Assembly: GCA_026002795.1 (NCBI GenBank)
Contig: BPGA01000001.1
Span: 420,001-452,000, forward strand
Reading direction: 5' to 3'
Length of the DNA stretch: 32,000 nucleotides
Source: Candidatus Saccharimonadota bacterium
GTDB taxonomy: Archaea > Nanobdellota > Nanobdellia > Pacearchaeales > GW2011-AR1
The translations under genes and the position numbers were made by a program. The notes under the pieces are model-generated. The model was given only the letters and a program-made list of their open reading frames with translations. It was not told where the DNA came from and did no database searches. Of this stretch, positions 19,906 to 23,318 are shown in pieces; the stretch's first letter is position 1, and each line of letters begins with the position of its first letter.

Positions 19906-21441
19906 ATGGGAATAATTCCATCAAATCCTCAAAGGATTAACAGATGGAATTTAATCCCTCCAAGCTGGAAAGCAGATGTAGATAAATCTCTTCTTAATGT
20001 GCTTTCATTAAATAGAAAATTCATAAAAAATCTAGAAAATGATGTTAGAAAAATATCTTTTCTTTCTCCAGAGGACTTTTTGAGTAACTTAATTTCTTCT
20101 TGGTATAATCATAATACTTTTTTTTCTTCCCTAATCCCTTTTTTGATTTCCTTACCCGAAGATGGGCATATAACACAACTGCAAGCTATTAGTATTCAAA
20201 AAATTCTTAATGATATGGGATTAGTTGATAGAATAACTCTTTTGCATTCATTAGCAATAAAACCTTTGCTTGAAAGAAATCACGAAATTGGATTTATCCC
20301 ATTTAATTCTTTTTACATTGATTATCTCTTAGACCATCATGATCTAGTCTGCTGTGATGCTAGTTTGGAGGATATAATCCAAAAATATCATGGGAATTCT
20401 GTAGAACTTTTTGAACAGAGAAAAAATAGAGGAATCCTGTCAAAAATTTTTTCCGGAATATCTGATGATCGTGAAAGAAAAGAATTAAGAAAGTTAAAAG
20501 AAAAAATGTTTTTAAGTGCGTTGTATGATTATTTCATTGATCGACCAAATAAAGTTAAAGCTCTTGTGAAAATATCTACAATAGATAATTTTGATGAATA
20601 TAGATTTTTGTATAATCTTGATGGAATAGAAGGATTTTATTTAAAAGATTATCTTATAAGAAATGGTCTTTTAGAAGATACACGATCTGAAATAGAAAAT
20701 TTATTAAATTACTTTGCTCTATTAAATGTAAGGATGGAAAGAACACCACAAGAGCAAGGGCTTAATTATAAAAAATTGCCTTTTTATGTACAATCAAGCA
20801 GGGTAAGTTGTGCATCAACGTGTGCAATGATGGTCTCTAATTTCTTTTACAGTGAAGATGTTTCAAAAGAAAGAGAAGACCAATTTCACTCTGCCGTTAA
20901 ATCTGCTTATCTAGAAGGTTGTCCTTTTTCCAAAATAGCTCTTACTTTATCTAGAATGTATCCTCAATTAAAGATTAGTCTTCATCACACAGATCCGAAC
21001 CTATTTGATATTGAAAAAGTAAGAAATTTATTTGGCGATTTGGGAATATTGGCAGTTAAAGAATACAAACAAACCGCAGAAGAAGCAGAAAAAAATGGTG
21101 TAACAATAGACATTCAAGAGGATATTGAAGAAGTTATACAAAAAACCCTTGATTATGGAGGAGTTTATATGGCAGCTACTAATCTTGGTGGAGGAGTTTT
21201 ACATTCTGAACTCATAGTTGGGAAAAATAAAACAAAATTTGCGGTTTATAATCCATTAAATGGAAATATAGAGTTAATAGATTGCCGAGAATTTAAGAAA
21301 AAGATGCAAACTCCTATAGGAGTATGGGGTATTAGCTTTATTGCCTTACCTGGAGAATCTAAAGAATATAAATCTTCGATTGAGTGGTTTAGAAAAAAAG
21401 ATGAAGAATTAAAAGATATGGGAATCATACTAAGCAAATAA
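19906..21441 (+). CDS. Soluble protein with an unknown helical N-terminal region (~290 aa) and a C-terminal papain-fold C39-like cysteine peptidase domain
   Basis: YVQSSRVSCASTCAMMVSNFFY matches the C39 Q-x5-C-x3-[CAS]-x-M pattern (oxyanion Gln plus catalytic Cys). Downstream, GVLHSELIVGKNKTKFAVYNPLNG matches the His ... [DN]P-x-G part of the triad. No TM or ABC domain. The track start at 19804 overlaps the divergent gene, so I prefer the ATG at 19906 (MGIIPSNPQ...). Confidence 0.7.
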   Translation: MGIIPSNPQRINRWNLIPPSWKADVDKSLLNVLSLNRKFIKNLENDVRKISFLSPEDFLSNLISSWYNHNTFFSSLIPFLISLPEDGHITQLQAISIQKILNDMGLVDRITLLHSLAIKPLLERNHEIGFIPFNSFYIDYLLDHHDLVCCDASLEDIIQKYHGNSVELFEQRKNRGILSKIFSGISDDRERKELRKLKEKMFLSALYDYFIDRPNKVKALVKISTIDNFDEYRFLYNLDGIEGFYLKDYLIRNGLLEDTRSEIENLLNYFALLNVRMERTPQEQGLNYKKLPFYVQSSRVSCASTCAMMVSNFFYSEDVSKEREDQFHSAVKSAYLEGCPFSKIALTLSRMYPQLKISLHHTDPNLFDIEKVRNLFGDLGILAVKEYKQTAEEAEKNGVTIDIQEDIEEVIQKTLDYGGVYMAATNLGGGVLHSELIVGKNKTKFAVYNPLNGNIELIDCREFKKKMQTPIGVWGISFIALPGESKEYKSSIEWFRKKDEELKDMGIILSK

Positions 21442-21446
21442 GGAGG
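21441..21446 (+). promoter_or_regulatory. Shine-Dalgarno-like AGGAGG, 5 nt upstream of the sORF ATG
   Basis: Read directly. It is one of only two intergenic AGGAGG hexamers I found by eye in the window (the other is at 604..609). Most genes here lack any SD. Confidence 0.45.
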
Positions 21447-21451
21447 AAAAA

Positions 21452-21499
21452 ATGGAAAGAAATCTTGACCTAGTTTTAGATTGTATCTGTACAACATAA
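21452..21499 (+). CDS. Candidate RiPP precursor sORF, 15 aa: MERNLDLVLDCICTT
   Basis: ATG 21452, TAA 21497..21499. It starts 10 nt after the C39-like gene stop and ends 40 nt before the YcaO gene. It is preceded by AGGAGG and followed by a GC hairpin plus T-run. The C-terminal Cys/Thr cluster (CICTT) is the residue type that YcaO enzymes modify. No upstream in-frame alternative start exists (in-frame stop at 21431). It is too short for statistical gene calling. Confidence 0.35.
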   Translation: MERNLDLVLDCICTT

Positions 21500-21507
21500 G
21501 TTTATTT

Positions 21508-21536
21508 TGGCCCTTTAATGGGCCATTTTATTTTTT
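21508..21536 (+). terminator. Hairpin (TGGCCC-TTTAAT-GGGCCA) followed by TTTTATTTTTT; candidate terminator or attenuator between the sORF and the YcaO gene
   Basis: Read directly: 6-bp perfect stem at 21508..21513 and 21520..21525, 6-nt loop, T-rich tract at 21526..21536. It is by far the most GC-rich element in this spacer. Confidence 0.4.
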
Positions 21537-21539
21537 AAG

Positions 21540-23318
21540 ATGATACTTGTTGTTAGAGGAATTGATAGTTATACTCCAATAAAGGAAATATTGGAAAATA
21601 CATATCAACCATATCATGTTTGTGATATTATAATTAAAGAACCACATAAAGGATACCCCATCAATAAAGAAATAGTAAAAAACTCTGTATCTTTTTACAA
21701 ACCAAGAATTATCTTTGGAAAATCTTACGGAAGTTGGATTGTTGCAGAGAGTATTGACGAAAATATTCCTATTTTTCTTTTTTCAATGCCTATAAAAGAC
21801 GGCGATAAAATATTTGGGTTTCCAAATATAAAAAACGTTAAAACAAATTTAATTTATAGTCTTGAGGATCCATATTTTGATAAAGAGATCATAGACAAAA
21901 ATAAGGATAAATACTCTAAGGTTCTTTTTTTAAGCGGTGACCATTCTTTAAGGCCTGTTAATCTGGATAAAATATCTAAGATTAAGAAATTTATTCTTGA
22001 TTCGTGCGGAACTAAAAATTTTAATAGCTTTTCTGAAGATTATCTGAATAAGAAAAAGAACGCTAGAGTTAGTATTGTAAAGAAGACAAATTTCTATGAA
22101 GAAGTACCTTTTAATAAGATAAGAAGTAAAGTTGATGAATCTTTAAAATTTGCTTTAAATAAAAATTATGGTCCTGTTACTAATATCGTTAAAAGAAAAT
22201 CCCCCGTTGAAAATTTGTTTGTTTATCAATCTAATATACTTGATACCTCAAAAGTTAATCCTCTGGTAAAAAACTCGGCTGCTACTGGCGGTATTGGTGT
22301 TAGTTATGATGAAAAAATAGCAATAAATAAATCTATTTTTGAAGCTTTAGAAAGATATTCTCTTACACTCTCAATAGTAGATTTTGTTGTTAAAAAATAT
22401 GATGAAATTCCTCATTTTCTTAGAGTAGACAAAAAAGAATTAGTTTTTCATACAAAATCTCAAATGAAAACACATAATCTAAGAGATGCTCTTAAGGAAA
22501 AAATTCATTGGACAGTAATACGAGACGCGTTTGATAACAAAGAAAAATTATATCCCGTTCAGCTAATTATACCAAATGATTTAGGTTATATGATTAGAGA
22601 AACCAGCTCTTCAGGTACTGCTCTTGGAAAAACAAAAGAACAAGCTTTAACACATGGGTTAAGGGAAGCAATTGAAAGAAATTCTTTAATGATGTGGTTT
22701 TACGGGTTATCTGAAGTTAAATCAAAAAAAATAGAGTTAAATAAAAGGAAAATGCCAAAAAAATTACTTAAAATTTACAATGATATATCAAAAAAAGGCT
22801 TTAAATTTAAAACTTATCTAATTGATTTTCATGGATTCAATACTGTATTTACGTTAGCTTTTAATGAAAATGAGTTATATATTGGCAGTTCTTGTGGGGG
22901 GTATAATGAAGCTATTTCTGGAGCACTTGAAGAAATAATCATTACAAGTTTTTTTGCTAAAACTCTTAGAGGAATAATTCCTAAAAAGCCAGAGGAAATT
23001 AAAAATCTACCGCAGCATTTCTTATATTATCAAGGGAAATTAAAATTTCAATTATTAAATTATCTTGATTCTATAAGCAAGGATAAGGTAAGGATAGATA
23101 GATCTAAATTTGACTATGTAAAAGCCTCAAAACTTCTCCAAAAAAAGGGTTATAATGTTTATTATAAGGATATAACTGCTCCAGAACTTAGAGGAAGATT
23201 TTTTGTTATTAAAGTTATAATTCCAGGTTTTCTTGATGTAATAAAAAACAATTCTTTATCTTGGGACGGTTATTATAAAATAAAGAAAAAGCCCAATCTT
23301 CCAACACCCTTTGCTTAG
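21540..23318 (+). CDS. YcaO-domain protein (ATP-dependent peptide-backbone-activating enzyme family) with an N-terminal alpha/beta-hydrolase-like extension
   Basis: YcaO motifs: GGIGVSYDEKIAINKSIFEALERYSL (SxxExxER), SSSGTALGKTKEQALTHGLREAIERNSLMMWFY (SxGxAxG...EAIER), SSCGGYNEAISGALEEI, RFFVIKVIIPG, and a Pro-rich C-terminus NLPTPFA. Residues 1-155 carry a GxSxG elbow (IIFGKSYGSW), an acidic site (SLEDPYFD) and LSGDHSL, arranged like a minimal Ser-Asp-His hydrolase. Confidence 0.85.
   Translation: MILVVRGIDSYTPIKEILENTYQPYHVCDIIIKEPHKGYPINKEIVKNSVSFYKPRIIFGKSYGSWIVAESIDENIPIFLFSMPIKDGDKIFGFPNIKNVKTNLIYSLEDPYFDKEIIDKNKDKYSKVLFLSGDHSLRPVNLDKISKIKKFILDSCGTKNFNSFSEDYLNKKKNARVSIVKKTNFYEEVPFNKIRSKVDESLKFALNKNYGPVTNIVKRKSPVENLFVYQSNILDTSKVNPLVKNSAATGGIGVSYDEKIAINKSIFEALERYSLTLSIVDFVVKKYDEIPHFLRVDKKELVFHTKSQMKTHNLRDALKEKIHWTVIRDAFDNKEKLYPVQLIIPNDLGYMIRETSSSGTALGKTKEQALTHGLREAIERNSLMMWFYGLSEVKSKKIELNKRKMPKKLLKIYNDISKKGFKFKTYLIDFHGFNTVFTLAFNENELYIGSSCGGYNEAISGALEEIIITSFFAKTLRGIIPKKPEEIKNLPQHFLYYQGKLKFQLLNYLDSISKDKVRIDRSKFDYVKASKLLQKKGYNVYYKDITAPELRGRFFVIKVIIPGFLDVIKNNSLSWDGYYKIKKKPNLPTPFA

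Follow-up and report, generated by a model that had tools for sequence, protein, structure and literature searches.

A stretch of 32,000 nucleotides (the window) from the metagenome-assembled genome of a Candidatus Pacearchaeota (DPANN) member, where it lies on a contig of 535 kb, encodes what we consider likely to be a compact maturation cassette for a peptide that is made by ribosomes and modified after translation (RiPP), with a 15-residue peptide as its substrate. The cassette spans positions 19906–23318 and is composed of three tightly spaced genes on the plus strand: an open reading frame for a two-domain protein with a predicted C39-clan peptidase domain (ORF1), the small ORF for the peptide, and the gene of a YcaO protein with a fused hydrolase domain. 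These three co-directional elements exist as described in the initial annotation of this DNA, and both large proteins are identical to NCBI entries (KatS3mg001_509 for ORF1 and KatS3mg001_510 for the YcaO protein). That this is a real peptide-substrate cassette we hold with slightly more assurance than the RiPP-type reading as a whole, on azoline chemistry specifically the sequence evidence leaves us evenly balanced, and we regard each specific function that might be given to the hydrolase or the peptidase as doubtful. Four outcomes had been set beforehand as speaking against the initial annotation; three were followed up here (the placement of the YcaO, the presence of the small ORF in homologous loci and the C39-like assignment), and all three came out in its favor.

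A conserved ultrashort open reading frame

The small ORF (21452–21499, +) runs from ATG to TAA over 15 codons and encodes the candidate precursor or substrate peptide MERNLDLVLDCICTT, which has a monoisotopic mass of 1737.81 Da and the C-terminus C-I-C-T-T. Its existence and its CICTT end had been correctly noted before, but the start has to be moved to 21452 and the proposed Cys-Thr character narrows to one invariant Cys/Ser together with the following Thr/Ser. We find the small ORF with frame and amino acid sequence kept in 13 distinct loci, 8 of the Pacearchaeal type and 5 bacterial, and the gene tables of the examined loci list it in none of them. It is present in every Pacearchaeal-type locus in which the region is visible (L001, L002, L004, L011-13, L014, L006/9/10/18, and L003), and the peptide is nearly unchanged in this group (consensus M-[EK]-(E/K)-R-[ND]-L-D-[LM]-V-L-D-[CL]-[ILV]-C-T-[TAS]) at 40–78% identity of the flanking proteins. 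The codon differences between loci are often mostly synonymous, e.g., 10 synonymous and 1 non-synonymous between L004 and L011.

The bacterial small ORFs encode peptides of 14–15 residues that belong to the same family: MEQLNCQTDLCCTT in L020, MTMFEQKLDLLSTA with Ser in place of Cys at position −3 in L021, MKKFNRKVDLLCTGD in L024, and MKQLFEGQTDLLCTA in L025. In L022, a bacterial genome of 30% G+C (GCA_964640635.1), two tandem variants, MKKMNQKTDLLCTA and MKKFNQKTDLACSV, lie 5′ of a mini protein and the YcaO gene (L022:5052–5306); duplicated precursor genes are typical of RiPP loci. The C-terminal signature of the family, D-[LC]-[LIVAC]-[CS]-[TS]-[small], in which one more Asp may occur, gives 20 matches as a regular expression in 219 kb of locus sequence, and 20/20 are cassette small ORFs with zero matches elsewhere. 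What does not vary in it is position −3, a Cys that is replaced by Ser in L021, and position −2 is Thr or Ser. In the window peptide, these two are Cys13 and Thr14, which count as invariant features together with LDLVLD; the Cys/Ser swap at −3 together with Thr/Ser at −2 fits cyclizable residues. Some relatives have Leu where the window peptide has its first Cys; this residue is not conserved and is dispensable.

The initial annotation had asked for a conserved small ORF in homologous loci, and it is there in a fixed position: in all loci, whether the YcaO module or its mini partner comes next, the small ORF lies directly 5′ of it, wherever ORF1 sits, with 6–165 nucleotides (nt) between the small ORF and the next gene. 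The small ORF accompanies the YcaO and not ORF1, as seen in the marine Tara contigs with the order small ORF, YcaO, ORF1. A Shine-Dalgarno-like AAGGAGG (21440–21446, +) overlaps the ORF1 stop codon and ends 5 nt before the ATG in the window; a GGAGG-type motif occurs at the same place in 7/7 Pacearchaeal-type loci compared (AAGGAG in L014), and L003, outside this set, has GGGAGGTGA. Given the recurrence in 13 loci, the synonymous excess, the conserved ribosome-binding site, and the confinement of the motif to cassettes, the small ORF is, judged by comparison of sequences, a genuine gene. Between it and the YcaO gene, the window has a hairpin with a T-run (21508–21535, +; TGGCCC-loop-GGGCCA with a GC-rich stem of 6 bp; fold z = −3.2) that was detected by a terminator-like scan and is a candidate attenuator or transcript-end signal. 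Comparable hairpins lie 3′ of the small ORF in L011, L020, L021, L022b, and L024, and about half of the loci, bacterial and Pacearchaeal-type alike, have a stable hairpin after the small ORF.

A DNA-pattern scan of metagenomes for the small ORF returned 2 true loci, while the matches in L016 and L019 contain no ORF and were rejected as chance. The Pacearchaeal-type locus that diverges most (L003:820–1080) is peculiar in that its small ORF, MKRDLDMVLDLVCTT at 904–951 with its own GGGAGGTGA site, lies in another frame inside a called hydrolase-YcaO ORF of 613 amino acids (aa), exactly at the hydrolase/YcaO junction. It is flanked by several A8 runs, an in-frame ATG follows after the stop, and tRNA genes stand on both sides of the gene; either a homopolymer error has fused three separate genes or the small ORF genuinely overlaps a fusion gene.

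The YcaO protein scores best on the family model of azoline-forming enzymes

The YcaO protein (21540–23318, +; 592 aa) consists of a hydrolase domain followed by a linker and the YcaO domain (22011–23318, +, for the latter two). The initial call of a YcaO domain is amply borne out by PF02624, which matches residues 260–564 with E = 2.6e-26 and 93.1 bits (cut-off 25.7), and by the ATP/Mg-binding motif residues S255, E268, E271, R272, E376, E379, and R380 that are invariant in 8 YcaOs. The window protein ends in LPTPFA and the bacterial orthologs end in PHPFP; a PxPxP-type C-terminus is typical of azoline-forming YcaOs.

The protein also lies outside the housekeeping YcaO types, as anticipated by the initial annotation. 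It matches TIGR03604, the model of SagD and thiazole/oxazole-modified microcins (TOMMs), with 95 bits (E = 3.9e-27) compared to 24 bits for the generic YcaO model; the bacterial cassette YcaOs reach 178–207 bits on TIGR03604 (cut-off 219) and only ~65 on the model for McrA thioamidation. For the window YcaO, the latter (TIGR03266) gives 20.8 bits against a cut-off of 365, and Pfam scans of all 31 window ORFs of at least 100 aa detected no methanogenesis genes in the window; the initial annotation had set the thioglycine role on McrA aside for a context that is not methanogenic. When compared to proteins of solved structure, the sequence profile scores 87 bits with MusD, 85 with TruD, 83 with MJ1094, 78 with LynD, and 43 with McbD, but 29 bits with the YcaO of Methanopyrus kandleri and 14.4 bits (E = 0.13) with E. 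coli YcaO (4q84). Foldseek searches with an AlphaFold model of the protein (mean predicted local distance difference test [pLDDT] 78.5, predicted template modeling score 0.82) matched LynD (2e-17), MusD (4.5e-15), McbD (7e-12), and also TruD. Outside the Pacearchaeal group, the linked bacterial YcaOs are what the window YcaO matches best in BLAST. On profile scores, E. coli-type and McrA-type roles are excluded for the window YcaO, and the evidence from the enzyme favors azoline chemistry, short of proof.

A fused hydrolase in the Pacearchaeal proteins and a mini CxxC protein in bacteria

The N-terminal part of the YcaO protein had been annotated as a hydrolase, and this call stands on both fold and catalytic residues. 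The minimal alpha/beta-hydrolase domain (21540–22010, +; residues 1–157) has a putative triad of Ser62 (GKSYG; codon 21723–21725), Asp110, and His135 that is invariant in 7 fusion proteins. In the AlphaFold model, the elbow G-K-S-Y-G with Ser62 lies between a strand and a helix, and Asp110 and His135 follow later strands. Foldseek matched the domain to 2qjw (E = 5e-6), carboxylesterases, TesA, the curacin thioesterase, and APT2; no Pfam family matched it at E < 1.

A profile of this hydrolase domain matches the Pacearchaeal-type YcaOs only and nothing in the bacterial loci, which carry instead a mini protein of 113–149 aa with a CxxC...CxxC pattern. Three of its five members weakly match TIGR03882, a model for TOMM leader peptide binding (E = 2e-4, 4e-3, and 0.1), and a profile of the mini protein has no match in any Pacearchaeal locus or the window. 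Hydrolase domain and mini CxxC protein take one and the same place, after the small ORF and before the YcaO domain. The initial annotation had listed the usual partners of RiPP-type YcaOs as missing, which holds for the window: no ThiF/E1, TfuA, nitroreductase/FMN (flavin mononucleotide) dehydrogenase, or ATP-binding cassette (ABC) exporter was found in the Pfam scans. It does not fully hold for the bacterial relatives with their mini protein resembling TIGR03882. We also considered that the YcaO linker might hide a leader-binding domain, but dropped this idea because alignments with hhalign of the mini CxxC protein to Pacearchaeal YcaOs, including full-length fusions, found no similarity. The marine loci alone encode a 59-aa CxxC protein just upstream of the small ORF (L006:3099–3278), and a profile search gave no similarity between it and the mini CxxC proteins of bacteria.

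ORF1 combines a helical domain with a predicted C39-clan peptidase domain

ORF1 (19906–21441, +) encodes a soluble protein of 511 aa with two domains. The N-terminal one (19906–20775, +; residues 1–290) is predicted to be all-helical, is highly conserved, and belongs to no known family: no Pfam family was consistently matched across 38 members, which share the invariant polar residues W66, H69, K119, H162, R172, D227, and E231. The C-terminal one (20776–21441, +), with a short C-terminal helix at its end, is a predicted papain-fold cysteine peptidase domain of the C39 clan. Its candidate catalytic residues are Q296, C302 (codon 20809–20811), H433 (codon 21202–21204), and N449-P450, of which Q296, C302, H433, and P450 are invariant in the 38 ORF1-family members. 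Asn/Asp449 stands 16 residues past H433, a His-to-Asp/Asn spacing that it shares with ComA.

Several lines of evidence converge on the C39-like assignment of the initial annotation. AlphaFold models the C-terminal 190 residues with confidence (pLDDT ~80–90 for residues 300–480), and Foldseek matches this domain to the peptidase domain of ComA (TM score 0.73), the C39-like protein 3erv, and PCAT1 as well as GtgE, PeiR, CtaG, and papain-like toxins. We scored the C39-clan models PF03412 (Peptidase_C39), PF13529 (Peptidase_C39_2), and PF11814 (DUF3335): DUF3335 or Peptidase_C39_2 is matched by 26/38 relatives (best E 4.8e-10 and 7e-9) and Peptidase_C39 by 12/38, while all of the five close ORF1 homologs match DUF3335. 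The window protein itself matches only DUF3335 and only weakly (13.5 bits for a cut-off of 25; E = 0.05), and two relatives are at threshold, with 24.5 bits for a cut-off of 24 (L021, Peptidase_C39_2) and 21.8 for a cut-off of 22 (L020, Peptidase_C39). The top sequence match of the family profile in the PDB is the double-glycine protease domain 6mpz (E = 1e-3). ORF1 is not fused to an ABC transporter, and the Pfam scans found no ABC gene in the window.

Linkage of the cassette genes and distribution of the cassette

A profile search of 1.84 billion representative proteins detected ~107 relatives of ORF1, ~45 of which have the full two-domain architecture; a protein-database search with the 38-sequence ORF1 alignment returned only five already known close homologs. 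ORF1 and YcaO are adjacent in every locus with enough sequence (as a YcaO remnant in one marine variant), and the pair persists in both gene orders down to ~25% identity. This includes five distant ORF1 relatives (~25% identity) that all (5/5) stand beside a YcaO of 396–425 aa and a mini CxxC protein, with bacterial-type neighbors such as sigma-70, DnaG, and PilM/N where the surroundings are informative; the proteins flanking the small ORF in the bacterial loci share only ~25–30% identity. By this comparison, peptide, YcaO, and C39-clan partner are a co-inherited unit, and by gene neighborhood the cassette is common to bacteria and archaea rather than archaea-specific. A GTDB genome scan with ORF1 revealed only one further Pacearchaeote, in which the contig ends inside the gene, and no relatives were found in viral contigs and plasmids.

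The marine Tara contigs include a natural deletion variant. In L006, L009, and L010, ORF1 (P0011) follows an intact small ORF and YcaO, but elsewhere (L005:5657–5968, L007, and L008) the identical ORF1 is preceded by no more of the YcaO than a C-terminal remnant of 103 aa, and the genes upstream are unrelated; the cassette is therefore dispensable.

Some bacterial cassettes have conspicuous neighbors. Two of them adjoin HisKA_7TM sensor proteins (L024:10379–14988 and L025:2168–4855). L024 encodes a seven-transmembrane (7TM)-GAF-HisKA kinase with a response regulator, and an Rv1355c-like ThiF protein and an FMN oxidoreductase of the Acg family are encoded next door. L025 has three tandem 7TM-only proteins, one unassigned paralog-sized neighbor, a FeeM-like gene, and a methyltransferase. 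The 7TM-kinase neighborhood may reflect a signaling link or a second pathway. An ABC-2 exporter pair lies near the cassette in L020.

A proposed maturation pathway and the alternatives

Based on these observations, we propose how such a cassette could work. The hairpin would let the peptide message accumulate over the enzyme message. The N-terminal part of the peptide (R-N-L-D-L-V-L-D) would serve as a very short recognition segment, which could be bound via the mini TIGR03882-like protein in bacteria and via the ORF1 N-domain, the hydrolase domain, or YcaO itself in Pacearchaeota. A TOMM-type YcaO would then activate, at the expense of ATP, the backbone amide that precedes the invariant Cys13, and the side chain of Cys13 (Ser in one bacterial relative) would close a thiazoline or oxazoline ring, with Thr14 perhaps cyclized too. 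ORF1 might handle the peptide by its N-domain and cut it with the Cys/His site of its C39-clan domain at a site other than Gly-Gly. The fused Ser-Asp-His hydrolase, which would replace the bacterial mini leader-binding protein in gene-order position, could contribute a further hydrolytic step on an ester, a thioester, or a peptide. What would result is a very small peptide with an azoline and a conserved sequence, and this better fits a signal, metal ligand, or cofactor-like molecule than a hypervariable antibiotic; a classical antibiotic of the latter kind is disfavored because the core is conserved and exporter and immunity genes are missing from the window. The HisKA_7TM kinases at two bacterial loci and the ABC-2 exporter at one are a hint of an exported signal. 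Only tentatively do we go further and suggest a new RiPP-like class of bacteria and DPANN archaea in which the shortest YcaO precursor would be turned into a tiny azoline molecule (...D-L-L-C-T-A) acting as a signal or a metal- or cofactor-like ligand, with a helical-C39 protein replacing recognition by RiPP recognition element (RRE) or E1 domains and a fused hydrolase adding a step.

Several points weigh against a RiPP-type maturation cassette with azoline chemistry. Concerning the peptide, none of the 13 small-ORF variants (0/13) has a Gly-Gly, Gly-Ala, or Gly-Ser leader motif, so the peptide offers no Gly-Gly site to a C39 peptidase, and the specificity of the ORF1 peptidase must differ from classical C39 enzymes for this reason. 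Its putative core is kept across domains of life instead of being hypervariable, and a precursor of 14–16 residues is, to our knowledge, shorter than any YcaO substrate. Concerning the enzymes, the window YcaO remains under the curated SagD cut-off (95 versus 219 bits), and thioamide-forming MJ1094 scores close to the cyanobactin heterocyclases (83 versus 78–87 bits). An RRE/E1-like leader-binding component was found neither in the window nor in any Pacearchaeal locus by Pfam, profiles, and hhalign, and no dehydrogenase, exporter, or immunity gene was found in the window by Pfam. The AlphaFold model of ORF1, built from a five-sequence alignment, has pLDDT < 50 for residues 1–300 and is thus unreliable for the N-domain. 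Finally, the cassette is rare, with one GTDB species representative found, and decaying in some marine Tara strains, which argues that it is accessory.

The strongest competing explanation keeps cassette and substrate but assigns the YcaO another chemistry, be it thioamidation without TfuA, amidine formation, or ATP-dependent cleavage of a peptide bond. The conserved Cys/Ser and Thr would then function in recognition or as nucleophiles of an N-to-S/O acyl shift that is resolved by the thioesterase-like hydrolase. MJ1094 of Methanocaldococcus jannaschii, solved with a peptide (6peu), matches as well as LynD and TruD and is a TfuA-independent thioamidating enzyme; furthermore, the top sequence match among solved structures, MusD (7u58), is titled an ATP-dependent peptidase. 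The resemblance of the hydrolase domain to TesA, the curacin thioesterase, and APT2 and the lack of an azoline dehydrogenase in the window would also agree with such chemistry. We nevertheless judge it improbable: the SagD/TOMM model clearly beats the one for McrA thioamidation (95 versus 21 bits for the window protein and ~178–207 versus 65 for the bacterial ones), a Cys-to-Ser swap at the invariant position is what would be expected of a cyclizable residue, and the C-terminus resembles the PxPxP type that is typical of azoline-forming YcaOs.

Alternatively, the small ORF could act in cis, as a regulatory upstream ORF or a leader peptide, to control the expression of the YcaO, with YcaO and ORF1 acting on another target such as a housekeeping protein. 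Its invariable place just 5′ of the YcaO module, often with a terminator-like hairpin after it, is formally the layout of an attenuator, its sequence is conserved and not variable, and no leader-binding protein was found in Pacearchaeota. However, the peptide is kept across domains of life despite a differing downstream gene (mini CxxC protein or YcaO), a spacing that varies from 6 to 165 nt, and a hairpin that is often absent. L022 has two tandem variant copies as is often the case for precursor genes, a TOMM YcaO acts on precisely such residues as the conserved Cys/Ser-Thr/Ser at the C-terminus, and scores are poor for the YcaO models of the E. coli and McrA types, leaving regulation by the small ORF as a quite remote prospect. 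That the small ORF is a chance frame in a spacer between unrelated large genes is barely conceivable, since the comparative data refute it: an AT-rich spacer does easily yield short ORFs and the single Pfam matches of the window ORF1 are weak (E = 0.05), but recurrence in 13 loci with many synonymous differences, the adjacency of ORF1 and YcaO kept at ~25% identity in both gene orders, and zero motif matches off the cassettes in 219 kb are hard to square with coincidence.

Comparison to known systems

The proposed RiPP-type maturation cassette has close parallels in the TOMM systems (SagBCD, BalhCD, and McbBCD of microcin B17). It shares with them a YcaO that scores best on the SagD model and has a Pro-rich C-terminus resembling PxPxP and the ATP motifs, a Cys/Ser/Thr substrate, a TIGR03882-like small protein in the bacterial relatives, and the structural match to McbD (7e-12). 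Unlike in TOMM systems, the precursor has only 14–16 residues with a single invariant cyclizable residue, an E1-like C protein of normal size and an FMN dehydrogenase are missing, the YcaO stays below the SagD cut-off, and the partner is a helical domain fused to a soluble C39-clan peptidase; the Pacearchaeal YcaO additionally has a fused alpha/beta hydrolase and no leader-binding protein that we could find. The cyanobactin heterocyclases LynD, TruD, PatD, and MusD are the nearest solved structures and sequences, and cyanobactin pathways also make very small azoline peptides such as muscoride and aeruginosamide with cores of 4–5 residues. Different from the cassette, these enzymes have fused E1-like/RRE domains, act on long multi-core precursors with recognition sequences, and are paired with the subtilisin-like proteases PatA/PatG instead of a C39-clan enzyme.

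C39 double-glycine peptidases such as ComA, LahT150, and PCAT1 resemble ORF1 in their papain fold and in the arrangement of Gln(−6)-Cys and His-(+16)-Asp/Asn. In contrast to them, ORF1 is soluble and free of an ABC fusion, its peptidase domain sits behind the 290-residue N-domain, and the peptide of the cassette lacks a Gly-Gly/Ala/Ser cleavage motif. An analogy can be drawn to PqqA of pyrroloquinoline quinone biosynthesis and MftA of the mycofactocin pathway, where a small precursor with a C-terminal motif conserved over distant taxa is encoded in a compact operon with a peptidase. Those pathways use radical S-adenosylmethionine enzymes instead of a YcaO, and the cassette has no linked redox or cofactor-using genes and a sporadic distribution that is not linked to a pathway. 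Like MJ1094 (83 bits) and the YcaO of M. kandleri, the window protein is an archaeal stand-alone YcaO domain without E1 or TfuA. It differs from these two by its TIGR03266 score (20.8 bits for a cut-off of 365), by the lack of methanogenesis genes in the window, and by having a small ORF and a peptidase instead of McrA.

The initial annotation had spoken of a candidate undescribed archaeal RiPP system. In the literature that we searched, we found no description of the cassette or of its peptides, and the 2015 survey of the TOMM landscape does not mention C39 or hydrolase partners. It is the restriction to archaea that has to be given up in view of the orthologous cassettes on bacterial contigs. 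The cassette likely belongs with the YcaO-dependent RiPPs. It is unusual in four ways: its precursor is ultrashort and conserved in sequence, its obligate partner joins an N-domain without known family to a soluble C39-clan peptidase, a hydrolase-YcaO fusion stands in the slot of the leader-binding protein, and its distribution covers both domains of life including a DPANN archaeon.

Pacearchaeotes are a DPANN lineage with reduced genomes and host dependence. A secondary-metabolite pathway is not what one would expect to persist in a genome of this kind, and the product may therefore matter for interaction with the host. The archaeal RiPPs characterized so far are only a few lanthipeptides (PMC12144867). 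The roles of YcaO proteins in non-methanogenic archaea are largely unknown, and the cassette bears on them. A three-gene unit with an obvious 15-residue substrate is tractable, with Cys13, Thr14, Ser62, Cys302, and the YcaO glutamates as targets for mutation, and comparing the forms with a mini leader-binding protein to those with a fused hydrolase could show how substrate recognition by YcaO changes. Precursors this short probably escape gene callers and mining tools.

Genomic neighborhood of the cassette

The window has a G+C content of ~28%, and the Pfam scans show ordinary archaeal housekeeping genes around the cassette, including genes for Mre11/Rad50-like proteins, the proteasome, FttA, the CCA-adding enzyme, OapB/OapC, RtcB, and archease as well as a type IV pilus locus. 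Rfam RNA families had no match in the window, and PADLOC models of defense systems gave no match either. Divergent from ORF1 (window 15638–19824, −) lie the gene of a 660-aa protein that has a lipobox-like signal end (LLSSC) and, C-terminally, the metalloprotease motif HEVGH and, beyond it, genes of two Cys-rich proteins that are secreted or membrane-anchored and belong to no Pfam family; none of the three is kept beside the cassette in the other loci. OapC (11177–11572) and OapB (11711–12115) are encoded near a cumulative GC-skew peak at ~10 kb (window 9600–12200), and a replication origin may lie near these genes; the search for origin-type repeats there returned nothing but chance matches in AT-rich sequence, and clear origin-recognition boxes were not found. 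Downstream of the cassette, the genes of the RNA ligase RtcB and its activator archease are adjacent (window 23511–25491, −). RtcB is also the downstream neighbor of YcaO in L002, indicating that local synteny is partly kept among close relatives.

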